Source: Minisyncoccota bacterium (GTDB lineage Bacteria; Patescibacteriota; Minisyncoccia; UBA6257; XYB1-36-10). From it: a stretch of 64,000 nucleotides of DNA. Shown piece by piece: positions 1-10,408 of this stretch. Below the pieces are notes generated by a model. It was not told where the DNA came from. It searched no databases and worked only from the letters and a program-made list of their open reading frames with translations. Both the position numbers and the translations under genes were made by a program. Numbering within the stretch: position 1 is the first letter of the stretch; each line of letters begins with the position of its first letter. The stretch lies in the NCBI GenBank assembly GCA_041651415.1, contig JBAZJH010000001.1:151713-215712 (forward strand). Reading direction: 5' to 3'.

Positions 1-2
1 AA

Positions 3-298
3 GTTAGGCAGTTTATAAACCAAGACATTCGGCCGGAGAGATTAGAGATATTAGAAGAGAGCGACACGGTTGGACTACAGGATATTTGGGACGCTATTTG
101 GGAATATAATAATGGGATATATAAAACTCTCTTAAAATCCTATCAGGACGATAAAAGCCAGGAACCGGAAGACCAAATCTTTTCCTCTCTTTTAAGGATT
201 CATAAAGAGGATGAGGACGGCCGGAAAGTTCGCCGAAATATAACAGACGCAAACGAGTTATCCGCTCATTCATTTATTTGTGGCGGATTTTTAACATG
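3..298 (+). CDS. Hypothetical protein, C-terminal fragment (5' end outside window); part of the integrated element
   Basis: Frame 3 is open from the window start to TGA at 296-298 (98 codons). No recognisable motifs. Confidence 0.3.
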
Positions 299-650
299 AA
301 AATTACTATCCCAAAAGAATACAGAGACCACTTTAAGGAAAATATAATTTATATAATGAGATTTTGGATGAAAGGCAAAAAGGTTCTGCTTTTGATGAAT
401 AAAGAAGAAAAGTGTAAGTTTTATAAAGCAATGGAAGAATAAGAGGAGAAACCGGAAAATCACGCTTTTTTCAGACTTGTAAAAGCAGGCGTTATAGAAA
501 CCGATATTGAGGTAATAAAGATGATAAGATAGATGTTATTGAGGCCTTTTGGAAGCATTTAGAGGGCAAAAAACGAGTACTTAAGAAGGATGATTGCCGG
601 GGGTTTATTTACTTTAATAAGACAGCATAAATCCTGGTATAATACAGGTA

Positions 651-1250
651 ATGAGAAGAGGTAGAGCATACAGATTAGGTATGATTGTAAAGAAAAATGG
701 CGTGAAGCAACGCAGTGATTTAACGCTAACTAAAGAAATCGCTACTACTTTAAGGGAAATGGTGTTGGCCGGCGAGAGTTTATATCAAAAAGGCGGTAAA
801 ATAAACCTTTTTTCAAAAGATGGAGAGAAAATAGCACTGTCAGTTGGAACGCTTAACGCATGGATTTTGAGGCGAAATATCGTGCCTGGTATTGGAGTTA
901 GCTTAAAGGATTATTTAGACAAGACGAGAGTTGAAAGAAGGGTAATAAAGATGAGAAAACAGCAAGAGGAGATGTGGGAGAAGGGACAGAATAATTTAGA
1001 GAAAGCATTAAGCATGCGTACTAATTTGCCGGTATTTAATAAGTTTGGGCAAGTGGTAAGAGATGAAGATGGAAATATTGTGCGGAGAGAAAATCCTAAC
1101 CTCTTGAAAATACAGTTAGATGCGGCGAAGTTTGTGTTGGAAAGGCTTAACTCGGAGAATTATGGGAAGAGAACAAAAATTAAAGACAAACATTTGGCGT
1201 TTTCATTGGCGGATTTTCGCCGGGAGGCAAAAAAGTATGAGGAGGAGTAA
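651..1250 (+). CDS. Hypothetical protein, element cargo; basic, probably nucleic-acid binding
   Basis: 199-aa ORF with no conserved catalytic motif recognised. Sits inside the integrase-bounded element. Confidence 0.45.
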   Translation: MRRGRAYRLGMIVKKNGVKQRSDLTLTKEIATTLREMVLAGESLYQKGGKINLFSKDGEKIALSVGTLNAWILRRNIVPGIGVSLKDYLDKTRVERRVIKMRKQQEEMWEKGQNNLEKALSMRTNLPVFNKFGQVVRDEDGNIVRRENPNLLKIQLDAAKFVLERLNSENYGKRTKIKDKHLAFSLADFRREAKKYEEE

Positions 1251-1614
1251 AAATAAAGTTTAGTAGATTAAGAAGTTATCCACCTAACAAAAATATATAA
1301 ATACTTTATAATTTAAGTGTAGTCGTAGCTACCCCAAAAGGAGTAGCTACATCCATTAGTTAGGCGTGGAACGGCGGTGCGGTTTAACCCTCTTGCCTTT
1401 CCTTACATAACTTCTTACGGGAACAATTTTTTGTTTTTGCTTCCCATAAGCAGATGTTTTTGTTTTTGCCATTTTATAAATAAAAATGGTTTTTAATACG
1501 ACCTTTAATGGCGTGTTTTACTCACGCCAAGTTGTCAAGCGATGTTGTAAAATACCCAAGTCGTATTTGCTATTTCCTAAATGAGATAGCTGCGACCATA
1601 CTCAAAGAACAGAA

Positions 1615-1650
1615 AACCTATAATTAAAGTAATTATAGGTTTTTATTTTA
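1615..1650 (+). terminator. Rho-independent terminator-like hairpin (AACCTATAATT-N5-AATTATAGGTT + T-run) inside a 480-nt noncoding stretch
   Basis: Perfect 11-bp stem followed by TTTTTATTTT. No CDS for about 360 nt upstream. Confidence 0.4.
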
Positions 1651-1734
1651 TAGCGTCAATAAAAGTGCGCTTTTTTAGCTTGAAATACTGCTTAAAAAAT
1701 GGGATAATTTGCTTGATTTAAGAATAAAAATGAT

Positions 1735-3522
1735 ATGAAAATGCTTTTCAAAGAGGCGGATTATAACTTGAACAGGTTGATTGAGAATATCAATGCCGGT
1801 GAAATTGGATTGCCTGATATTCAAAGGCCTTTTATTTGGAAAGATGTTAAGGTTAGAAACTTATTTGATAGTATGTATCGGGGTTATCCGATAGGATATT
1901 TGCTTTTTTGGGGAAACTTTCAACAGGAAAACACAAGAACGATAGGTAGTAACGAAGAAATGCATCGCCCCCCGCGTCTTTTAATTGTGGACGGCCAGCA
2001 ACGATTAACTTCTCTCTTCGCGGTCATAAAAGGAAAAGAAGTAGTGAGAGAAAATTATGAGAAAGAAAGAATAATAATCGCTTTTCATCCTTTAGAAGAA
2101 AAGTTTGAAGTGCCAGACGCGGCTATTAGAAATAATCCCGAATATATACAGGATATTTCTCTTATTTGGAATACGGAGAATATACATGGATTTATTACTA
2201 AACATATTAATAAGTTAAAAGAAGTAAGAGAGCTAACCAGTGAGGAGGAGAGTAAAATTGCTAATAATATAGGCAACTTACATGGTTTACTTCATTTTCA
2301 GTTTTCTGTCTTAGAAATTGACGCTACAGCTACAGAAGAAGAAGTGGCCGAGATATTTGTTCGTATCAATAGCGAAGGCAAACACTTAAAAGAGCCGGAC
2401 TTTATTTTGACTTTAATGTCGGTTTTTTGGGATGAGGGAAGGATGGAGTTAGAGAAGTTTTCTCGCGCTTCTCAAGTGCCTTCGGAAGGCATAGCTACGG
2501 CTTTTAACTATATTTTTCAACCAAAGCCAGACCAAGTGCTTAGGGTAGCTATTGGGCTGGGATTTAAGCGGGCACGAATGAAATACGCTTATAGTATTTT
2601 AAGAGGTAAAGACTTGAAAACGGAAAAGTTTAGCGAAGAACTACGAGTAGAGCAGTTTGAGGTGCTTAAAAACGCCCAGGACAAGGTTTTAGACCTTAAT
2701 AACTGGCACGAGTTCCTAAAGTCCTTAAAAGAAGCCGGATATACCCGCCAGGCGCTTGTTAGTTCAGCTTACAGTGTTATGTATTCCTATATTATATTTT
2801 TAATAGGAAAATATGAGTTTGAAGTTGAGCCGGCTGTTTTACGGAGATTAACTGCTCGTTGGTTTTTCTTTTCTTCTTTGACAGGGCGATATACGGGTTC
2901 AGCAGAAACCCAAATGGAAGAGGACTTAAATGCTATTGAAAAAGGGAAATCTCTTTATGGAGTATCTGAATATGGAACTATAAAAAATGGTGGAGAAACT
3001 TTAGAACAAATAATAAATCACATTATCGGAACAGAAATTACATCTGATTATTGGAGTATAACTTTACCGACCAGTGGGTTAGTTAGCGGTTCAGCACGCA
3101 GTCCGGCTATGCTTGCTTATTATGCCTCTCTAAATATTCTTGGCGCGAAGGTTCTTTTTTCTGACTTAACTACTATTCAGTTGATGGAAAATGGAGTAAC
3201 CGAAAAGCGTTCGGCTTTGGAAAGACATCATCTTTTCCCGCGAAAATATCTGAAGAAGATAGGAATTAAAGATTTTAATGAAATAAACCAGGTGGCTAAT
3301 TACGCTTTAATAGAGTGGGGAGATAATAATGATATAAGCGACCAATCTCCAAGTGAGTATTTGCCGATTTATTTGCCACGTCTTGGAGAGGATAAGGAAA
3401 AATGTTATTACTGGCATGCTTTGCCGGAGAATTGGGAACAGATGGAATACTCAAAGTTTTTAGAGGAACGCCGCAAGAAAATGGCGGTGGTTATAAAGGA
3501 CGCTTTTGAGAAATTAAAATAA
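1735..3522 (+). CDS. GmrSD-family type IV (modification-dependent) restriction endonuclease, DUF262 (ParB-like NTPase) + DUF1524 (His-Me/HNH-like nuclease)
   Basis: N-terminal IGLPDIQRPFIW...YRGYPIGYLLFW and the DGQQRLTSL motif are typical of DUF262. C-terminal ERHHLFPRKYL...NYALIEWGDNN region fits the DUF1524 His-Me finger. Confidence 0.7.
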   Translation: MKMLFKEADYNLNRLIENINAGEIGLPDIQRPFIWKDVKVRNLFDSMYRGYPIGYLLFWGNFQQENTRTIGSNEEMHRPPRLLIVDGQQRLTSLFAVIKGKEVVRENYEKERIIIAFHPLEEKFEVPDAAIRNNPEYIQDISLIWNTENIHGFITKHINKLKEVRELTSEEESKIANNIGNLHGLLHFQFSVLEIDATATEEEVAEIFVRINSEGKHLKEPDFILTLMSVFWDEGRMELEKFSRASQVPSEGIATAFNYIFQPKPDQVLRVAIGLGFKRARMKYAYSILRGKDLKTEKFSEELRVEQFEVLKNAQDKVLDLNNWHEFLKSLKEAGYTRQALVSSAYSVMYSYIIFLIGKYEFEVEPAVLRRLTARWFFFSSLTGRYTGSAETQMEEDLNAIEKGKSLYGVSEYGTIKNGGETLEQIINHIIGTEITSDYWSITLPTSGLVSGSARSPAMLAYYASLNILGAKVLFSDLTTIQLMENGVTEKRSALERHHLFPRKYLKKIGIKDFNEINQVANYALIEWGDNNDISDQSPSEYLPIYLPRLGEDKEKCYYWHALPENWEQMEYSKFLEERRKKMAVVIKDAFEKLK

Positions 3523-3527
3523 TTAAG

Positions 3528-4322
3528 ATGTATTTTAGTAAAAGAAATAATTATCAGATTGAGTATTCCGGGTATGAAGATGCATCACCTAATCTAAGGA
3601 AGCGACTGGCTTATGTCATAAATAAGTATCATGACGCTAATAATAATTTTATTTCTTCTGAAATGATTGCGTCTCTTGTGGATTTTGATGAGTTTCAACA
3701 TCAGGTTAAAAAGCATTTAGTTATAGATAACCCATTGGATGTTATAGACTATTACCCATTTAATATGGTTTTTGATGTGGTAGAGATATATTGGGATTTA
3801 GCAAAAGAAGTATCGTCAAAGATGGATATATATACAGAATTAAGACAAGTATTTATTTTATCTGGCTCAGTTTATCAAATTAATGGGGGGACAGGAAAAA
3901 TTGAATTAATCCCAGATGAAGAACTTGCTAAAAAAATAAATGAAACTCAAGAAGTATTTAGGGAGCAGTATGAGGTATACAAGTTATTTTCGGAAGCAGT
4001 AGGAAATCTTTTTAGCAGAAAAACAGAACCGAAAAATGTTGTAAGAGATATTTATATTGCTGCAGAAAAATATCTAAAAGCCGTGACTGGAGAAGCTCAA
4101 TATTCAAATGCTATTAAAAGAATAAATAAATCAAATATTATAAATAGTGAACAAAAATCAATAATGGAGAAACTTTATGCTTTTCGCTCTAATACACAGG
4201 GAACTTCTCATGCCGGCTCTTCTCCTGAACCAAATGAAAAGGATGCTGTATGGTTTTTGGATACTATGGCAGCACAATTAAGGAACATAGAAAAACAAAT
4301 AAAAGAAAAAAAGATTAGCTAA
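3528..4322 (+). CDS. Hypothetical protein; possible HEPN/Abi-like C-terminal R-x7-H motif (FRSNTQGTSHAG)
   Basis: 264-aa ORF starting 6 nt after the GmrSD stop, same strand. Only a weak motif-level resemblance to HEPN R-x(4-7)-H. Confidence 0.4.
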   Translation: MYFSKRNNYQIEYSGYEDASPNLRKRLAYVINKYHDANNNFISSEMIASLVDFDEFQHQVKKHLVIDNPLDVIDYYPFNMVFDVVEIYWDLAKEVSSKMDIYTELRQVFILSGSVYQINGGTGKIELIPDEELAKKINETQEVFREQYEVYKLFSEAVGNLFSRKTEPKNVVRDIYIAAEKYLKAVTGEAQYSNAIKRINKSNIINSEQKSIMEKLYAFRSNTQGTSHAGSSPEPNEKDAVWFLDTMAAQLRNIEKQIKEKKIS

Positions 4323-4323
4323 A

Positions 4324-4704
4324 ATGACAGAAGTAAATCAAAAAAGAATATGTCAAGAGTGTGGTAATGAGATGGTGGATGTTAATTATTGTAATTACTG
4401 CAATAAGAGAGTTATTAGCAATTTACATGTTTTTATATCAGAAAATATAGAGATAAGTGAGGCATATAAAGGAAAGGTGCGAGAAGGGCAGGTTGGAGAA
4501 GTAAAGCCACATTTTGAGTTTTCAGAAAAGGATGAAAAAAGTGGAGACTCGCGTTTGACTAAAGGAGTTCATATTTCAATAGCTATAGATAGAAAAAATA
4601 ATAAATATCGTCAAGTTGTTAAGGATAAAAGAACTGGAAAGATTTTACATAAAGAGAGTGAGCCACTCACAGAACATCGCTCTAAAAAATTAAATGATTT
4701 CTAA
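4324..4704 (+). CDS. Hypothetical zinc-ribbon protein (CxxC...CxxC at N-terminus)
   Basis: CQECGNEM...CNYCNKR zinc ribbon. Starts 2 nt after the previous stop. Confidence 0.4.
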   Translation: MTEVNQKRICQECGNEMVDVNYCNYCNKRVISNLHVFISENIEISEAYKGKVREGQVGEVKPHFEFSEKDEKSGDSRLTKGVHISIAIDRKNNKYRQVVKDKRTGKILHKESEPLTEHRSKKLNDF

Positions 4705-4906
4705 AAAAGAGTTAGAGAAATATAAAGCGATTTATAGGAAACACTACAGCAAGGAGATTTCCGACCAAGAAGCGCTGGAACAAGGCATAAAACTTATTCG
4801 TCTCATTGAGTTGGTTTATAAGCCGATAACTAAAGATGAATATAAGAAACTCCAAAAAAGAAGACGAGAAACAGGAGGAGTGGCAAAATGTAATTGGTTT
4901 TTTTGA
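4694..4906 (+). CDS. Hypothetical small protein (70 aa)
   Basis: ORF overlaps the upstream gene by 11 nt. Coiled-coil-like, basic C-terminus. Confidence 0.3.
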   Translation: MISKKELEKYKAIYRKHYSKEISDQEALEQGIKLIRLIELVYKPITKDEYKKLQKRRRETGGVAKCNWFF

Positions 4907-4953
4907 CTTATTGATTAAAGTAGATAGGCGAAATAATCCGCATTTATATAAAA

Positions 4954-5646
4954 ATGAAAATGAACTCAAAAGAGAAAATTGAATATATGCTTAATTTAAT
5001 TAGAGAAAAAGCAAAAATTAGCCCTCCAGGGCCTTTTTATATAAGGATAAATCCACTTTTAGATATTGGAAATAATAGAGGTATTCCTGATGAAGCACCG
5101 ATAGTTTTTTCTATTTCAGACCAGATTAGTATTTTAGAAAAGTTTGAAAAGGATGGTTTATTGTTTGGAGTTAATCTTGATGAGGATTATAAAGGGGGGT
5201 GGATTATTTTAGGAAGTTTAGATATAAATGGCGATGATAACCCTTATAACAAAACCGAAGTTGAGGGAATAGATGAAGTCGGCTCTGGTAAGGGAAAACC
5301 ATTCACATCTATCAAAGGAGGGGAGGGATATTTTCAATTTTATAAACAGGGAGAAAAGATACTTATAGGGAAAGAGGATACAAGACATTTTCGCTTACTT
5401 AGAGCTCTATCCGAACCACATTTTGGTGTTCAGAAAAATATTGAGGCTCTTTTTGAGGCAATAAAAACAACTAAAGATAAAAATGATAGTAGTTTATCAG
5501 ACTATTCTTCCCAAAGAGATAGTCGCATATTAGAGATTATTACTAATACTAAAAAAGAACTTCAGAAAAATAAGAAACTGCAAGGTAAGTTAAAGTATCG
5601 TTCTGATAATAAAAAAAGGACAATGTGGCTTGAATTAGAGGGTTAG
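4954..5646 (+). CDS. Hypothetical protein, element cargo
   Basis: 230-aa ORF, followed by the terminator at 5681-5711. Confidence 0.4.
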   Translation: MKMNSKEKIEYMLNLIREKAKISPPGPFYIRINPLLDIGNNRGIPDEAPIVFSISDQISILEKFEKDGLLFGVNLDEDYKGGWIILGSLDINGDDNPYNKTEVEGIDEVGSGKGKPFTSIKGGEGYFQFYKQGEKILIGKEDTRHFRLLRALSEPHFGVQKNIEALFEAIKTTKDKNDSSLSDYSSQRDSRILEIITNTKKELQKNKKLQGKLKYRSDNKKRTMWLELEG

Positions 5647-5680
5647 AGAGTAAAAAAACTAAGTTAGATTTCTTTAGTTT

Positions 5681-5711
5681 AGCGGGTTATGCAAAAACCC
5701 GCTTTTTTATT
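5681..5711 (+). terminator. Rho-independent terminator (AGCGGGTT-atgcaaa-AACCCGCT + T-run)
   Basis: 8-bp GC-rich stem plus TTTTTTAT, immediately downstream of the 4954-5646 gene. Confidence 0.6.
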
Positions 5712-5797
5712 ATCTAAAATCGTTATTGTTTTGTCTATTTTCCCTCTCGTTCCCTCTTTCTTTTTGGATATTAGAGGGATTGTTTCAATTAGGGCAA

Positions 5798-6052
5798 ATG
5801 ACAATGAAAAGGGAAAAAAGAATAAATAATTTCAAAACCGCAGACTTGGCGTTGGCTGCGGCGCTTTCTGTTGTCGGATTTCCGGTTGAGGAAATGGAGC
5901 AAATGGACGCGAGAAGGTTTGTATTCATATTTTCTGATAATCCAGAGCTCCAAAAAGAAATAAAGAAATACTGGCTGGGAGAACTAAAGGTCGTTCCGCA
6001 GACCTATTTCAACCAATTAAAAGTGTTGAAGGCGCGGATTTATGAGCGATAA
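5798..6052 (+). CDS. DUF5659-like small protein (phage/CPR-associated, function unknown)
   Basis: TADLALAAALSVVGFPV...DARRFVFIF...ELQKEIKKYWLGELKVVPQTYFNQLKVLKARIYER matches the DUF5659 pattern as I recall it (DLxLAAxL..GF...D.RR.vF.F...L...Y..GEL.V.P..FF...K.LK.RIY). Start chosen at the internal MTMKREK; the upstream extension looks spurious. Confidence 0.6.
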   Translation: MTMKREKRINNFKTADLALAAALSVVGFPVEEMEQMDARRFVFIFSDNPELQKEIKKYWLGELKVVPQTYFNQLKVLKARIYER

Positions 6053-6200
6053 AGCGTTATGGCGAGGAAAATAAACAAAGATATAGAAATAGAATATGAA
6101 CAAGCTCCGGTAACGCCGGAGAGTGTTGAAAAGTTAAATAGCATCTTTGACTTTATTTTTGAGCTGACGCTGAAGCGCGAATTAGAAAATAATAATAAAA

Positions 6201-7514
6201 ATGAAGATGAAAAATGTAATCAAAAAAGAATTAAATAAAAGGGGAATTATTTATAGAGATGAAAACAGCTTAATCTCTACTTATTGCCCATTTTGTCAGA
6301 ATGAAATGATTTGTCTTCGTATTAACGCTAATACGGGAGATGTTAGTTGTTTTTCTTGTAAAAAAGAAAAGGGTTGGGAAGAGTTTATAGCTAAACTGGA
6401 TGAGAATAAAAAGCAGGAAGAGATATTAAACAAAAAAAGCGTAGAATCAGAAGAAAATAAAAATCAGGAAAGAGAGATAGATAATAAAATGGTTGAGGAG
6501 TTTAAGAAAGAGACTGGTAATAAAGGTAAGTATATGTTTGAGGTTTTAACTGCAGGAGAAATTATTTCTCGCGAATATGAGAGTGAAAAATGGTTGATAA
6601 AAGATATTTTGCCTATGGAAGCGATGATGGTTATTTCCGCTCCGTCAGGAGGATTTAAGACTTTTCTTTCTCAATCTATAGCAATATCTATTTCAAGAGG
6701 CCTTCCGGTATTTGGGCATTATGAGACAATACAAACTCCGGTATTATTTATAGATGAGGAAAATAGCGGAGGAGTAATAAAAAAAAGATTATTATCTTTT
6801 GGTATTGATAAAAATGAGAATAAGATACATTACATAAGTCAGAAAAACTTTAAGGTAGATAAAGGAGATGGCGTAGAAGGAGTTTTAGAAATAGTAAGAG
6901 ATAAAAAAATTAAATTAATTATAATTGACTCATATATTCGTATTCATAGCGTAAGAGAAAATGATTCTTCGGAAATGGCTAAAGTGAGTGAAAAGTTGAG
7001 ATTATTTAGTAAGGCAGGTATAGCAGTTATCTTAATACACCATCATAAGAAAAGTAATGGCCATAACTGGGATAATATGGGAGATGATATTATGCGTGGC
7101 TCTTCAGATATTGCGGCTTCTGTAGATACCCACTTGATAATTAAATCAAATAAAAATAACAATTTTTTAACCCTGAAAGCTGGTAAGTTTAGATATTCTG
7201 CTCCTATTTCTGATGCGAAGATTGAAATAATAAAATCTGGTGAAGAAATAATAGAGTTTAGGTATGCAGGAGAAAGTAAAGAGAAAGCAGAAGAGAAATA
7301 TGATGAAGCAATAGAGGAAATAAGAAACTTATTTAATGATGAGGAAAAAAAGAGTAGAGAAGAAATACATAAAACTTTAAGGGAAGCCTTTGGTTTTGGG
7401 AGAGATGTTATTGATAGCGCTGTTAAAGAGGCCGTAAATAGAAAAATTATAGAAAGAGTAAAAAAGGAAGGTCAGAAAGGAAATAAGGCATTCTATCGTT
7501 TAATTGGCGACTAA
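6201..7514 (+). CDS. Replication protein: N-terminal primase-like zinc ribbon + RecA-like AAA_25 ATPase (RepA/primase-helicase-like) of the mobile element
   Basis: CPFCQNE...CFSCKK zinc finger. Walker A-like VISAPSGGFKTFLSQ with LFIDEEN (Walker B-like) and the IIDSYIRIH...ILIHHHKK pattern are typical of AAA_25/RepA-like proteins. Confidence 0.6.
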   Translation: MKMKNVIKKELNKRGIIYRDENSLISTYCPFCQNEMICLRINANTGDVSCFSCKKEKGWEEFIAKLDENKKQEEILNKKSVESEENKNQEREIDNKMVEEFKKETGNKGKYMFEVLTAGEIISREYESEKWLIKDILPMEAMMVISAPSGGFKTFLSQSIAISISRGLPVFGHYETIQTPVLFIDEENSGGVIKKRLLSFGIDKNENKIHYISQKNFKVDKGDGVEGVLEIVRDKKIKLIIIDSYIRIHSVRENDSSEMAKVSEKLRLFSKAGIAVILIHHHKKSNGHNWDNMGDDIMRGSSDIAASVDTHLIIKSNKNNNFLTLKAGKFRYSAPISDAKIEIIKSGEEIIEFRYAGESKEKAEEKYDEAIEEIRNLFNDEEKKSREEIHKTLREAFGFGRDVIDSAVKEAVNRKIIERVKKEGQKGNKAFYRLIGD

Positions 7515-7631
7515 TTTTAACTTCCTAACTTTCTAAACTATATATATGTCAGGAAACCAGGAAGTTATATTAAAAAAAGAAAAAAGTTTTCTACTGGACA
7601 ATTAGGAATAACTTGGAATATAATAAAGATA

Positions 7632-7808
7632 ATGAAATACTTTACTAAAGAAGAAATCGCAAAGGAGTTAATGGTTCACCCTAAAACAGTGGAAAGATGG
7701 CTTAAAAGGAGATTATTAAGAGGATATAAGTTAGGAGACGGTAAAACGGCGCTTTGGCGTATTCCCAAAGAAGAACTAAAAAGGTTTTTAGAAAAACATA
7801 AAAATTAA
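7632..7808 (+). CDS. Excisionase/MerR-like HTH DNA-binding protein (Xis-like), 58 aa
   Basis: ORF not in the supplied track (<60 aa). Translates to MKYFTKEEIAKELMVHPKTVERWLKRRLLRGYKLGDGKTALWRIPKEELKRFLEKHKN. Shows the KTV.RW...G.LP...G.RW..F helix-turn-helix pattern. Lies immediately upstream of the serine recombinase. Confidence 0.65.
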   Translation: MKYFTKEEIAKELMVHPKTVERWLKRRLLRGYKLGDGKTALWRIPKEELKRFLEKHKN

Positions 7809-7815
7809 AATAAAT

Positions 7816-9462
7816 ATGAAAGAAGAAATAAAAATTAAAAAGTTGGTGGCATTATACGCTCGTGTTTCTACCGAACGGCAGGAGGTGCAAAAAACAATTA
7901 AAACACAACTTTTAGCAATTAAGGATTTTGCTGAAAAGCAGGGTTACGCCATAGTTGAAAGATATATTGATAATGGTTGGAGTGGAGGTATTTTTGAGAG
8001 ACCGGAATTAGATAGGTTACGTCAGGATGCTCAAAGTAAAAAACGAGCATGGGAAGCGGTGATAATATACGACCCAGACCGTTTATCACGCATATATTCT
8101 CACCAGGCATTTTTGACTGAAGAGTTGCAGAAAAAAGTGGAGATTATTTTCATTACTATTTCTACACCTAAAAACGATGAGGATAAGATTTTGTATGGAG
8201 TAAGAGGATTATTCGCGGAATATGAGAGGATGAAAATAAAGGAGCGTTTTCGTTTAGGAAAGTTAAGAAAGGTAAAAGAGGGTCATATACTGACAACGGA
8301 AGCGCCTTTTGGTTATAATTATATAAAAAGGAATGAGAATGTGCATGGTTATTATAAAATTAACGAAAATGAAGCAAGAATTATTAGAGATGTTTTTCAT
8401 TGGGTAGCTGACGAAAAATTAACTCTCCGGGCAGTGGTAAGGAGATTAAAGGAAATGAATATAAAACCTCGCAAGAGTAAGAGGGGGGTATGGAATACAA
8501 CCACGCTTGGAACAATTTTAAGGAATAAAACTTATATTGGCGAAGCTCATTACGGAAAGTCGTATGCGGTAGAGCCGGAAAAGCCGTTAAAGCAGGAAAA
8601 ATATCGCAAGATTAGAAAAACAAGCAGAAAAATCAGACCGGAAGAAGAGTGGATAAAAATACCAGTGCCGGCAATAATTGATAGCTATTTATTTGAAAGA
8701 GTGGAAAGACAACTAAAAAATAATTATGAGCAATCAAAGAGAAATAGAAAAAATGATTATCTTTTAGCCGGAAAGATTTGGTGTTCGTGTGGGTGTAGGC
8801 GAGTGGGTGAGGGCGCTCAAAAAGGAAAACATTTGTATTATCGTTGCTCTGCAAGAAATCTTAATTTTCCCTTACCTGTGGAATGTAAAGAAAGAGGTAT
8901 TAACGCTAAAGTGGTTGATAGTAAGTTATGGGAACGAATGGTGAGGTTTATGAGTTCGCCTGAACTTCTACAAGAACAAGTAAACAGGTGGGGAAAAAGC
9001 AGAAAAAATAGGGTAAATGAGAGCGTAAAAGATAAAGAGATTGTTAAAAAGGAGGTTCTTAAACTTAAAGAAGAAAGAGAGCGTTATACGAAGGCCTACG
9101 GCGCGGGAGTGCTTACTTTAGAGCAACTGAAATGGAATAGTGATGAGATAGGGCAAAAGATTACTTCTTTAGAAAAAGAAATTACTGCATACGAGACGCA
9201 AGAAGGACAAACTGAAAAATTATCATTTCCAACAAAAGAAGAAATTGAAGTTTTTGCTAATAAAGCCAAAAACACTCTTAATAACTTGAACTTTGAAGAG
9301 AAAAGCCGCATAGTTAAGGACGCTATAGATAAAATAGTCGGTTATAAAGAAAAACTAAAAGTCATAGGAAAACTTCCTATCACTACATTAAATTATGTCG
9401 GGTTACAAACTATCAATGGGAATAGTGGGGTTGCCGAATGTGGGAAAGTCTACGCTTTTTAA
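7816..9462 (+). CDS. Large serine recombinase (serine integrase)
   Basis: N-terminal resolvase domain LYARVSTERQ with the catalytic Ser, followed by a recombinase domain and a Cys-rich zinc ribbon (CSCGCRR...YYRCSA) and a C-terminal coiled-coil. 548 aa. Confidence 0.9.
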   Translation: MKEEIKIKKLVALYARVSTERQEVQKTIKTQLLAIKDFAEKQGYAIVERYIDNGWSGGIFERPELDRLRQDAQSKKRAWEAVIIYDPDRLSRIYSHQAFLTEELQKKVEIIFITISTPKNDEDKILYGVRGLFAEYERMKIKERFRLGKLRKVKEGHILTTEAPFGYNYIKRNENVHGYYKINENEARIIRDVFHWVADEKLTLRAVVRRLKEMNIKPRKSKRGVWNTTTLGTILRNKTYIGEAHYGKSYAVEPEKPLKQEKYRKIRKTSRKIRPEEEWIKIPVPAIIDSYLFERVERQLKNNYEQSKRNRKNDYLLAGKIWCSCGCRRVGEGAQKGKHLYYRCSARNLNFPLPVECKERGINAKVVDSKLWERMVRFMSSPELLQEQVNRWGKSRKNRVNESVKDKEIVKKEVLKLKEERERYTKAYGAGVLTLEQLKWNSDEIGQKITSLEKEITAYETQEGQTEKLSFPTKEEIEVFANKAKNTLNNLNFEEKSRIVKDAIDKIVGYKEKLKVIGKLPITTLNYVGLQTINGNSGVAECGKVYAF

Positions 9463-10408
9463 GATTTTAACGAAACAAGATATTAATATCGCCAATTATC
9501 CGTTTGCGACTATAGACCCGAATGTGGGAGTTGTGGCAGTGCCGGATGAAAGATTGGAAAAATTAAATGAGCTGTCAAAAAGCGTTAAAAAAATTCCGGC
9601 AGTCGTGGAATTTTATGATATCGCGGGGCTTGTTAGGGGAGCAGGGAAAGGAGAGGGACTGGGAAATCAGTTTTTAGCGAATATCAGAGAGACAAACGCC
9701 ATAGTTCAGGTAGTCCGTGTTTTTCAAGGCGGGGAAATAATTCATGTGGAAGAAAGCGTCAATCCGGAAAGAGATATTGATATTATAAATTTGGAATTGA
9801 TATTTAAGGACTTGGAAACAGTGGAAAAAAGAATCGGGAGTTTGGAAAAAGAAGCGAGAGGAGACAAAAAGAAAGAAAAATCTTTGGCAATTATGAAAAA
9901 ACTGAAAGAAGAGCTTTTGGCCGATAAGCTGGCTAATTCGCTTTCGGAAGAAATAAAAGAAGAGCCGGCAGTCAAAGAATTAAATTTATTGACTTTAAAA
10001 CCGCAGATTTATTTATTGAACGGAAAAGAAGAAGACGTGGCGGAAAATTTAAAAGAAAAAATAAGGAAACTCGGAGCGGATTTTTTGATTTTTGATTTAG
10101 CGGAAGCGGAAGATGTAAACGAGCTGATAAAAAAATCGTATGAGGTTTTAGGATTAATCAGTTTCTTTACGACTGGAGTTGATGAAACGCGGGCTTGGAC
10201 AATAAGGAGGGGAGTGAAAGCACCGGAAGCGGCGGGAACTATCCATACGGATTTTGAAAAGAAATTTATCAGGGCGGAAGTGATAAATTGGCAGGAGCTT
10301 TTAAATATTGGCGGCTGGTCAGGCGCCAAACAAAAAGGCAAGCTTCGTTTGGAGGGGAAAGAGTATGTTTTTCAAGACGGGGATGTGACGGAAATCAGAC
10401 ATGGATAA
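9395..10408 (+). CDS. ychF: Ribosome-binding ATPase YchF (Obg-family GTPase)
   Basis: GIVGLPNVGKSTLF P-loop, NYPFATIDPNVGVV, and the C-terminal TGS-domain region. Alternative start at 9416 (MGIVGL). The first 68 nt overlap the integrase gene. Confidence 0.9.
   Translation: MSGYKLSMGIVGLPNVGKSTLFKILTKQDINIANYPFATIDPNVGVVAVPDERLEKLNELSKSVKKIPAVVEFYDIAGLVRGAGKGEGLGNQFLANIRETNAIVQVVRVFQGGEIIHVEESVNPERDIDIINLELIFKDLETVEKRIGSLEKEARGDKKKEKSLAIMKKLKEELLADKLANSLSEEIKEEPAVKELNLLTLKPQIYLLNGKEEDVAENLKEKIRKLGADFLIFDLAEAEDVNELIKKSYEVLGLISFFTTGVDETRAWTIRRGVKAPEAAGTIHTDFEKKFIRAEVINWQELLNIGGWSGAKQKGKLRLEGKEYVFQDGDVTEIRHG

Follow-up and report, generated by a model that had tools for sequence, protein, structure and literature searches.

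We report an integrated mobile element of 14,750 bp whose right-hand two thirds lie in the window, a 64,000-nucleotide stretch of Minisyncoccota bacterium DNA (contig JBAZJH010000001.1, positions 151,713 to 215,712). The reading that we favor, with a probability of roughly 0.85, is that a large serine recombinase (LSR) inserted this element into codon 6 of the essential-type GTPase gene ychF in a Candidatus Liptonbacteria chromosome, that the attachment site of the element (attP) lies inside the integrase open reading frame (ORF), and that the integrase gene is split upon integration. The site-specific insertion, the maintenance of the ychF frame by a start borne on the element, and the partition of the integrase gene are shown by comparison of sequences from related loci. 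An earlier reading of the letters of the window, referred to as the original prediction, had proposed an integrated element with a serine integrase at its edge, and synteny, an att repeat, and domain searches now support that proposal. Its description of a typical integrative-element set stands as regards the integrative nature of the region and is incomplete otherwise, given that it missed the full extent of 14.75 kb, an arm of minus-strand genes, and the position of attP within the integrase ORF.

Every substantial ORF between positions 651 and 9462 of the window is encoded on the plus strand, as expected from the co-directional accessory block proposed for that region. The G+C content is 0.31-0.34 inside the element (3500-8000) versus 0.36-0.44 in the host genes to its right, and the nearest YchF proteins, with 81% and 75% identity, belong to metagenome-assembled genomes (MAGs) of Candidatus Liptonbacteria. 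An exact-protein look-up yielded contig L001, which shares 11,250 bp with the window without a single difference and adds 9,350 bp on the left. The same arrangement occurs in independent assemblies, namely Logan SRR8542065, ENA ERZ27247363, and one NCBI MAG.

In related genomes (L006, L007, L049, L025, L021, and others) the gene order reads PMT_2 on the minus strand followed by Pur_DNA_glyco and ychF on the plus strand, with the latter two separated by 12-700 bp or by at most one small variable ORF. This spacer varies even where the element is absent, each genome carrying a different small ORF: a 162-aa ORF in L006 (5747-6235) and a 103-aa minus-strand ORF in L007 (9435-9746). The corresponding L001 coordinates are 3863 for the end of the glycosylase gene and ~18750 for the start of ychF. 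Because the two genes are neighbors in relatives and far apart in L001, approximately 14.9 kb must have been inserted between them. The comparison with insertion-free relatives suggested at the outset thus bears out the element, with glycosylase and ychF adjacent in L006, L007, L049, L025, and others. The left end, correctly placed outside the window by the original prediction, maps to L001 4019-4020, which is 5,331 bp to the left of position 1; the right end maps to window positions 9419-9420.

The two ends share an imperfect repeat. At L001 4004-4030, attL (ATGAAACTCTCAATGGGCATTGTCGGG) reads MKLSMGIVG, the native N-terminus of YchF, which appears as MKLS[IM]GIVGLPNVGKS in most of approximately 70 related genomes. 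Only nine ychF codons remain there, and similarity to ychF stops immediately afterwards. At the right end, the window carries TACAAACTATCAATGGGAATAGTGGGG (attR), with TAC in place of the native ATG. The new ychF ATG lies three codons upstream of the native position, giving the N-terminus MSGYKLSMGIVGL where relatives have MKLS[IM]GIVGL. The two sites match at 20 of 24 nucleotides, lie 14,750 bp apart, and constitute the sole such match in the 20.6-kb L001, against a chance expectation of 8e-4. A far-left repeat of the sequence around 9395-9462, which had been named as something to look for, therefore exists, in the form of what is left of the native start of ychF. Being short and imperfect, it escaped a generic search for repeats across L001. 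The accessory block was also said to end exactly at ychF; adjacency holds, and the boundary is in fact an overlap, since the integrase stop at 9462 lies beyond the ychF start at 9395.

The crossover would fall in the Gly6 codon of ychF (...MGIVGL...), with the GG at 9419-9420 as the proposed central dinucleotide. A family consensus was assembled from 19 attP, 72 attB, and 55 attR sequences anchored on this Gly codon. The attP spans approximately 50 bp and comprises ATGTCG at -24 to -19, a center reading AT.GG.AT, and CGACAT at about +19 to +24. The axis of the inverted ATGTCG and CGACAT hexamers falls exactly on GG, and since this is the layout expected of a serine-integrase attP, GG is the likely central dinucleotide. 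Scored for dyad symmetry on their own, the reconstructed attP and attB of this element gave no clear answer; the family consensus did. In four complete elements attL and attR are both hybrid. The predicted attB junction joins ...GAATATGAAACTCTCAATGG to GAATAGTGGGGTTGCC..., and the predicted attP junction joins ...ATGTCGGGTTACAAACTATCAATGG to GCATTGTCGGGACACAATCGGACAT...; the corresponding predicted 60-mers are TATTAGAATATGAAACTCTCAATGGGAATAGTGGGGTTGCCGAATGTGGGAAAGTC for attB and AATTATGTCGGGTTACAAACTATCAATGGGCATTGTCGGGACACAATCGGACATTATT for attP.

The same ~50 bp is read in three ways, namely as the site of recombination, as part of the integrase coding sequence (..N-Y-V.. in the left half, ..R-H.. 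in the right half), and, in the +1 frame, as the start of the post-integration YchF. The ATGTCG motif at 9395-9400, in the left half of attR, is at once the outer motif of the site and the source of the new ychF ATG. The gene stays intact because this left outer motif of attP, read in the +1 frame, supplies a replacement start and N-terminal codons. The resulting YchF proteins begin MSGYKLSM in this element, MSGSKQTI in L098, MSSSKLSV in L151, and MSSSSLKV in L115.

The integrated integrase has 548 residues, of which 1-535 are encoded by the element and the last 13 (NSGVAECGKVYAF) by ychF codons in another frame. When the integrase of the window is joined at the shared GG to the sequence that lies to the right of attL, the reading frame stays open for 580 aa and closes with 45 residues, HCRDTIGHYYYQAEVKVVPFSFSIKIPSSLKRGVDYGFRRKQVYR, that carry a tail conserved in homologues. 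Protein searches place the integrase in a very large family, found mostly in bacteria of the Candidate Phyla Radiation (CPR), whose members are 52-59% identical to it; this ychF site is the common target of the family's integrases. Among the best 120 homologues, 101 end in frameshifted YchF P-loop codons, and 16 of the remainder end in the conserved tail ...NT.RH....IPFxFxIKLPxP...; the tail of the reconstituted ORF (VVPFSFSIKIPSSLKRGVDYGF) aligns with that of homologue P0101 (LIPFDFVVKLPAPLKTGVDYGF). Because the integrase frame is one base out of phase with ychF, the P-loop codons yield a recognizable read-through peptide (for example RNCRIAECR). All three of the ychF-reading (class A) homologues that were looked up, P0004, P0005, and P0027, lie directly upstream of ychF and overlap it.

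The same dichotomy appears in 80 metagenome loci. In 50 of them the integrase gene runs at its 3' end into the ychF P-loop and lacks a contiguous tail, 19 carry full-length, tail-bearing integrases with no ychF within reach, and none carries both a tail-bearing integrase and a ychF junction. The 19 full-length genes contain a +1-frame mimic of the YchF N-terminus (MS..LSIGIV...), which is the unrecombined attP. Four GTDB genomes have an integrase or a remnant at ychF: L032 (a 217-aa remnant), L041, L060, and L074, the last of these a remnant without an integrase. By these comparisons ychF codon 6 appears to be a widely used landing site for elements with variable cargo, including candidate defense genes. 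An intact internal attP is also present in the full-length P0058 integrase on the frequently recurring contigs L094-L096 (68-101 kb), a protein listed in 67 assembly-collection blocks. It adjoins OLD-family/AAA_15, patatin, and Trypco1/trypsin genes, with pilin-like (N_methyl) genes downstream; these contigs could be a large episome or phage able to integrate at ychF.

A hidden Markov model (HMM) built from the tails of full-length homologues was then applied to L001, the GTDB loci, and the metagenome loci. It identifies the tail on the attL side of this element (E 3e-8) and on the attL side of L098 (~7.1 kb), L115 (~10.9 kb), and L151 (~10.7 kb), with E values of 1e-17 to 1e-18. Further matches are three remnants arranged in tandem in L032 and a single one in L074. 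In all eight cases (four complete elements and four remnants) the tail follows directly, and in the integrase frame, behind a native-type remnant of the ychF start; one of the four remnants is shortened by an early stop. Integration leaves this conserved tail of ~45 residues behind at attL, attP being located within the integrase ORF. The L032 remnants lie at 5089-5267, ~6960-7077, and 7129-7268, with the 217-aa integrase remnant (9379-10032) at ychF, and two of them begin MRLSIG, which is neither the native start of that genome nor an element-type start; their tandem arrangement suggests repeated integration and decay at the site. The L074 remnant (2825-2953) encodes MALSIG... and then the tail motif LIPFEFTIKL; the 2.7 kb between it and ychF, which lies downstream, hold no integrase gene, and the remnant is probably the scar of a lost element.

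The integrase itself has the domain set of an LSR. Pfam assigns Resolvase (1.5e-28), Recombinase (7.8e-19), and Zn_ribbon_recom (6e-7) domains, and the PHROG integrase match has an E value of 6e-91. In the YARVS motif the serine nucleophile S18 and R16 are invariant in sets of 30 and 70 homologues, as are the four cysteines of the zinc ribbon among integrase homologues. Foldseek returns SPbeta-, PhiC31-, and Bxb1-type integrase-att complexes as top matches, with E values down to 6e-23 at approximately 15-18% identity.

An AlphaFold2 model was computed for the full-length homologue P0056 (580 aa) from a 70-sequence alignment, with a mean predicted local distance difference test score (pLDDT) of 79.6. 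It contains long helices at 382-467 that would form the coiled coil in the zinc-ribbon domain, and a last zinc-ribbon hairpin at 503-520, where the domain ends. Residues 521-546, which correspond to the translated att site, are modeled as disordered, with pLDDT below 50 at 524-530 and 532-544. Beyond them lie the tail strands 547-555 (pLDDT ~85 for the block), 563-568, and 574-579. In this model the tail (IPFxFxIKLPxP...) is thus a small C-terminal beta mini-domain that follows a flexible linker encoded by attP, and truncation is predicted to spare every canonical domain of the integrase and to cost it this additional small module, for which Pfam has no model.

In the mechanism that we propose, the circular form of the element would express the 580-aa integrase and recombine attP with attB. 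Integration leaves the 45 tail codons at attL, fused behind the orphaned native start of ychF, and the integrated gene encodes the 535-aa core plus 13 residues of frameshifted ychF. In the chromosome, ychF may be transcribed from within the element, whose genes to the left of ychF in the window are all co-directional with it. The 58-aa HTH_17 protein encoded beside the integrase may be a recombination directionality factor (RDF) or a regulator, and excision by the tail-less integrase together with this protein would restore both genes. The AAA_25 ATPase would replicate the excised circle. Removal of the tail may change the integrase between the episomal and integrated states, as a switch of directionality or stability.

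Several observations weigh against this account. Neither an empty site nor an excised circle of the same strain was found, and no strain without the element occurs among the exact-protein look-ups. The boundaries are drawn from genomes with 75-81% identity in YchF and from internal att-site logic; the central dinucleotide is deduced from symmetry and the shared core rather than observed. No attL tail was found in 16 integrated loci for which the entire upstream 10 kb was available; their elements may exceed 10 kb or may have lost the tail. In L089, positions 1300-1480, ~8.6 kb upstream of the P0027 integrase, give a weak tail-HMM match (E 0.22, VIPFKFIIDI) with a stop codon between the putative junction and the tail motif, and may represent a decayed attL. 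Full-length copies occur away from ychF on the chromosome-sized contigs L135 (689 kb) and L177, the latter the 4.43-Mb Bradyrhizobium diazoefficiens chromosome, where the copy lies in an insertion sequence-rich region near an OLD-like/UvrD pair; full length is therefore not always equivalent to episomal. No terminal overlaps were present in 17 class-B contigs nor in the complete-element contigs L098 and L115, and circularity is accordingly not demonstrated. Promoter-like sites are no more frequent in the element than in shuffled sequence, and no transfer genes (capsid, relaxase, or type IV secretion system, T4SS) were detected in it.

What the split of the gene does for the element is a separate question. 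Two integrase isoforms may be set by the state of the element, a 580-aa form, made from the circle alone and either required for attP x attB integration or biased towards it, and a tail-less form, made from the integrated copy, that is either excision-competent or silenced, with directionality or stability hard-wired in the att site; we regard this proposal as tentative and rather doubtful. A possibility that we take seriously, at short of even odds, is that attP within the ORF has no regulatory meaning: the tail would be dispensable, the 535-aa core would both integrate and excise (the latter with an RDF), and the site would have evolved in a tolerant linker whose DNA was also able to provide ychF with a start codon. 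The truncated form does hold the catalytic, recombinase, zinc-ribbon, and coiled-coil domains, the att-encoded peptide does fall in a low-confidence linker of the model, and many characterized LSRs have no such tail, the structural matches spanning 486-596 residues. The tail motif, on the other hand, is conserved across lineages only ~55% identical in the core and is in frame and stop-free at attL in the four complete elements, and because of this its conservation argues for selection on the full-length protein; the four remnants, likewise in frame with the single early stop noted above, add to the case against a dispensable tail.

Less probable is a locked-in element, in which loss of the tail would inactivate the integrase in the manner of an archaeal "suicidal" integrase and leave an immobile, slowly decaying island with defense genes. 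The decay products in L032 (the integrase remnant and three attL remnants) and L074 (an attL remnant) would fit such a fate, as would the lack of transfer genes in the present element. Set against them are approximately 50 integrated integrase genes that are intact over ~530 codons, with catalytic and zinc-ligand residues invariant across 25-56 integrated-form sequences of ~55% identity, and because of this conservation the data argue against simple decay. Only three pairs of these genes exceed 70% amino-acid identity, so that for dN/dS estimates the synonymous sites would probably be saturated. The HTH_17 partner is also conserved beside the integrases, and all ORFs of the present element are open.

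The features of the element and its junction are listed below.

Table. Positions of element genes, the att junction, and ychF in the window
Feature	Position	Strand	Basis or remarks
236-aa ORF, 3' end	1..296	+	L001 8939-9649; central hydrophobic segment; no family match
48-aa ORF	296..442	+	ORF call
199-aa ORF	651..1250	+	Weak partial small-terminase PHROG match, E 1.3e-3, residues 140-181
Non-coding gap	1284..1655	both	Unusually stable predicted structure on both strands
GmrSD-like putative type IV restriction enzyme (DUF262 / ParB-like N domain)	1735..3522	+	Pfam, PADLOC
AbiJ-N-terminal-domain protein (PADLOC candidate PDC-S32), putative cargo	3528..4322	+	6 nt past the GmrSD-like stop
126-aa protein, N-terminal zinc-ribbon-like CxxC...CxxC	4324..4704	+	Sub-threshold double zinc ribbon
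70-aa ORF	4694..4906	+	Weak homologues in 2 related loci
230-aa protein	4954..5646	+	Shared with 3 family elements: L093, L101, L122
DUF5659 protein	5798..6052	+	Pfam E 1.3e-12; ORF from 5726, likely true start 5798
59-aa ORF	6059..6238	+	Overlaps the start of the ATPase gene
Zn-ribbon (CHC2-like) + AAA_25 RecA-like ATPase	6201..7514	+	AAA_25 E 1.9e-25; CHC2 sub-threshold, E 0.004
58-aa HTH_17 (excisionase-family) protein	7632..7808	+	Pfam E 6e-12; excisionase PHROG match
Large serine recombinase, integrated (truncated) form, 548 aa	7816..9462	+	Resolvase + Recombinase + Zn_ribbon_recom
attR	9395..9444	+	Left half attP-derived, right half attB-derived
ychF, host gene with replaced 5' end	9395..10408	+	ORF call, relatives

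To separate a shared core from cargo, the proteins of the element were searched against all ~170 fetched loci. In 45 loci an HTH_17 gene immediately precedes that of the integrase, with 60-72% identity among the matches listed; DUF5659 is present in 14 loci, the AAA_25 ATPase in 8, and the 230-aa ORF in 3. No counterpart was found in these loci for the GmrSD-like, AbiJ-like, radical SAM/SPASM, and 199-aa proteins or for the remaining genes. The family core, as judged from these matches, thus appears to consist of the integrase and HTH_17, with DUF5659 and AAA_25 in some members, and the GmrSD-like and AbiJ-like genes appear to be variable cargo; the 199-aa ORF, because it has no homologue in the ~170 loci, is likewise classed as cargo or element-specific. 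Elsewhere in the family the cargo differs, comprising an OLD-family nuclease, patatin, and Trypco1/trypsin in the P0058 element and a methyltransferase and a TrwB/DUF87 ATPase in L088 and L091. The latter two loci (L088 1-1156 and 5592-6374; L091 3464-4156) encode, besides the TrwB/DUF87-type ATPase, a further serine recombinase, a tyrosine integrase, or both, which hints at composite or conjugation-related relatives.

The replication module of the original prediction comes down to the Zn-ribbon/AAA_25 ATPase, which matches PHROGs 906, 2597, and 6012 (primase/helicase families). No primase catalytic domain was found in this protein, and it is presumed to be the replication initiator or helicase of the element. 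A promoter-like site (7595-7624) precedes the HTH_17 gene, and a terminator-like hairpin (5681-5703) lies 3' of the 230-aa ORF.

Two neighboring genes resemble components of defense systems. The GmrSD-like protein matches GmrSD_N/DUF262 in Pfam (E 1.4e-32) and HEC-05 in PADLOC (2.6e-33), and the DGQQR motif is visible in its translation (IVDGQQRLTSLF); its best solved relative is BrxU (7P9K). The original prediction had called it a DUF262+DUF1524 nuclease of the GmrSD family. Profile searches of the kind it recommended confirm the domains that it named, DUF262 among them, with the exception of DUF1524, which Pfam did not detect even when the last 240 aa were searched at a cut-off of E 0.1. A C-terminal pattern, ERHHLFP...N..L.E..NN, occupies the same position as the C-terminal part of BrxU in a non-significant alignment. 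The gene at 3528-4322, counted initially among four ORFs of no known function, instead matches AbiJ_NTD4 with 35.8 bits (cut-off 34) and PADLOC PDC-S32 (1.3e-13). Its product holds RSNTQGTSH, in which the gap between R and H is 7 residues compared with the Rx4-6H of HEPN domains, a possible resemblance noted by eye. We infer that both genes are anti-phage cargo. As in mobile defense islands that carry GmrSD/BrxU and AbiJ, a DUF262 domain with DGQQR, HEC-05 and PDC-S32 matches, and an integrative-element location coincide here; unlike GmrSD/BrxU, the present protein has no DUF1524 above any threshold and resembles characterized members only in its N-terminal domain.

Upstream of the GmrSD-like gene lies a 485-bp gap (1251-1734) whose predicted folding, whichever strand is considered, is far more stable than that of shuffled sequences (z -6.1 and -8.0). 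Promoter-like sites lie at 1284-1312 (plus strand) and 1659-1632 (minus strand), and positions 1613-1650 hold a perfect hairpin of 14 bp and the run of T that follows it. The minus strand may also encode a highly basic peptide of 38 aa (1356-1472). Rfam gave chance-level matches only, and the gap has no homologue in the fetched loci. It may be a non-coding RNA, a leader, or a replication origin. Pfam gave no match for the 38-aa peptide, and none for the 199-aa and 230-aa proteins.

The left arm, which lies outside the window in L001, contains four minus-strand genes and four plus-strand ORFs. The former (4160-7554) encode a 158-aa P-loop-like protein, a radical SAM/SPASM protein, and proteins of 159 aa and 275 aa without an assigned family; the latter include a 336-aa protein with an N-terminal membrane anchor. 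The best NCBIfam matches of the radical SAM/SPASM protein are of peptide-maturase or heme type, all far below their cut-offs. Viperin was considered and rejected as an identity for this protein, given that the PADLOC pVip match spans the generic radical-SAM core only.

The gene content bears on the type of element. Since virion, relaxase, and T4SS genes are lacking and IMG/VR holds no relatives by integrase, ATPase, or predicted attP junction scans, we read it as a plasmid-like integrative element with putative defense cargo. That it is instead a prophage or a phage satellite akin to phage-inducible chromosomal islands (PICI-like: int, xis, primase/rep, small terminase) is very unlikely: its int-xis-rep order, its typical satellite size of 14.75 kb, and the weak small-terminase-like match of the 199-aa ORF (E 1.3e-3) would suit a satellite, and are outweighed by the absence of capsid, portal, large terminase, tail, and lysis PHROG matches among 19 element proteins, by the lack of IMG/VR relatives, and by the terminase-like match itself, which spans 42 residues only in an ORF absent from the other family members searched.

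Comparison with known systems sets the element apart in several respects. It shares with the phage LSRs PhiC31, Bxb1, A118/LI, SPbeta SprA, and TP901-1 the Resolvase, Recombinase, zinc-ribbon, and coiled-coil regions, a ~50-bp att site with inverted outer motifs around a non-palindromic central dinucleotide, and an integrase gene at the edge of the element. It differs from them in sequence (approximately 15-18% identity) and in a tail that has no Pfam model. To the best of our knowledge, attP lies outside the integrase coding sequence in characterized phage LSRs, and the protein is the same in both states. A literature search of incomplete coverage, which included the LSR survey of Durrant et al., returned no description of an LSR ORF spanning attP, and this is absence of evidence only.

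A change of protein C-terminus upon integration has a parallel in mycobacteriophages of clusters G, N, and P (BPs and Brujita), for which integration-dependent immunity was reportedly shown by experiment (Broussard et al. 2013), the repressor C-terminus being changed and a degradation tag lost. There too attP lies inside a coding sequence. In those phages it is the repressor that is split, the recombinase is of the tyrosine type, and the change in behavior was shown; here it is the integrase that is split. Elements of the pSAM2/SLP1 type in actinomycetes possess int-xis-rep modules and replicate after excision, with tyrosine integrases, tRNA targets, and an FtsK-like transfer protein. The present element resembles them in its small size and in the side-by-side placement of its excisionase-like, integrase, and replication genes, and differs in that no transfer gene is seen, although the relatives L088 and L091 carry TrwB/DUF87-type ATPases.

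Integration at ychF has precedents. LSR-bearing pipolins of Actinobacteria use ychF as a target (PMC11551731), and in a defective prophage of S. pneumoniae int lies directly upstream of ychF, with attB listed between a DUF951 gene and ychF (PMC8637289). As here, ychF or its 5' flank is the integration site and the integrase gene abuts ychF (PMC11551731, PMC8637289). The hosts and element types differ (piPolB elements; a Streptococcus prophage), and both sources are silent on a split integrase gene and on any replacement of the ychF start. Integrative elements commonly restore the end of a target gene with sequence from attP (PMC7192596).

The present analysis provides exact boundaries and att sites for a mobile element of CPR/Patescibacteria. 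To our knowledge, the mobile elements of these bacteria are poorly characterized. Serine integrases are, in addition, major tools of genome engineering whose directionality control is under active study, and a natural pair of state-dependent isoforms, should it exist, would be relevant there.

The closest architectural parallel is found in the SSV-type tyrosine integrases, in which attP lies within the integrase ORF and which were described in 2020 as "so far restricted to archaea" (PMC7253208). In SSV1, pTN3, and pT26-2, as in the present element, the att site is translated and parts of the integrase gene flank the integrated element (PMC7253208). Those enzymes are tyrosine recombinases that target tRNA genes, and the split converts the gene into two inactive pseudogenes (PMC7253208). 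In contrast, the element described here uses a bacterial large serine recombinase, targets the 5' end of a protein-coding gene, and removes the last 45 of 580 codons, leaving the canonical domains; the 535-aa part is conserved and is predicted from the structural model to keep all of them. By these comparisons, bacterial large serine recombinases join the enzymes whose own gene contains attP. If the two isoforms do prove to be set by the state of the element, they would constitute a bacterial serine-recombinase counterpart of the archaeal "suicidal" integrases, widespread in CPR bacteria.

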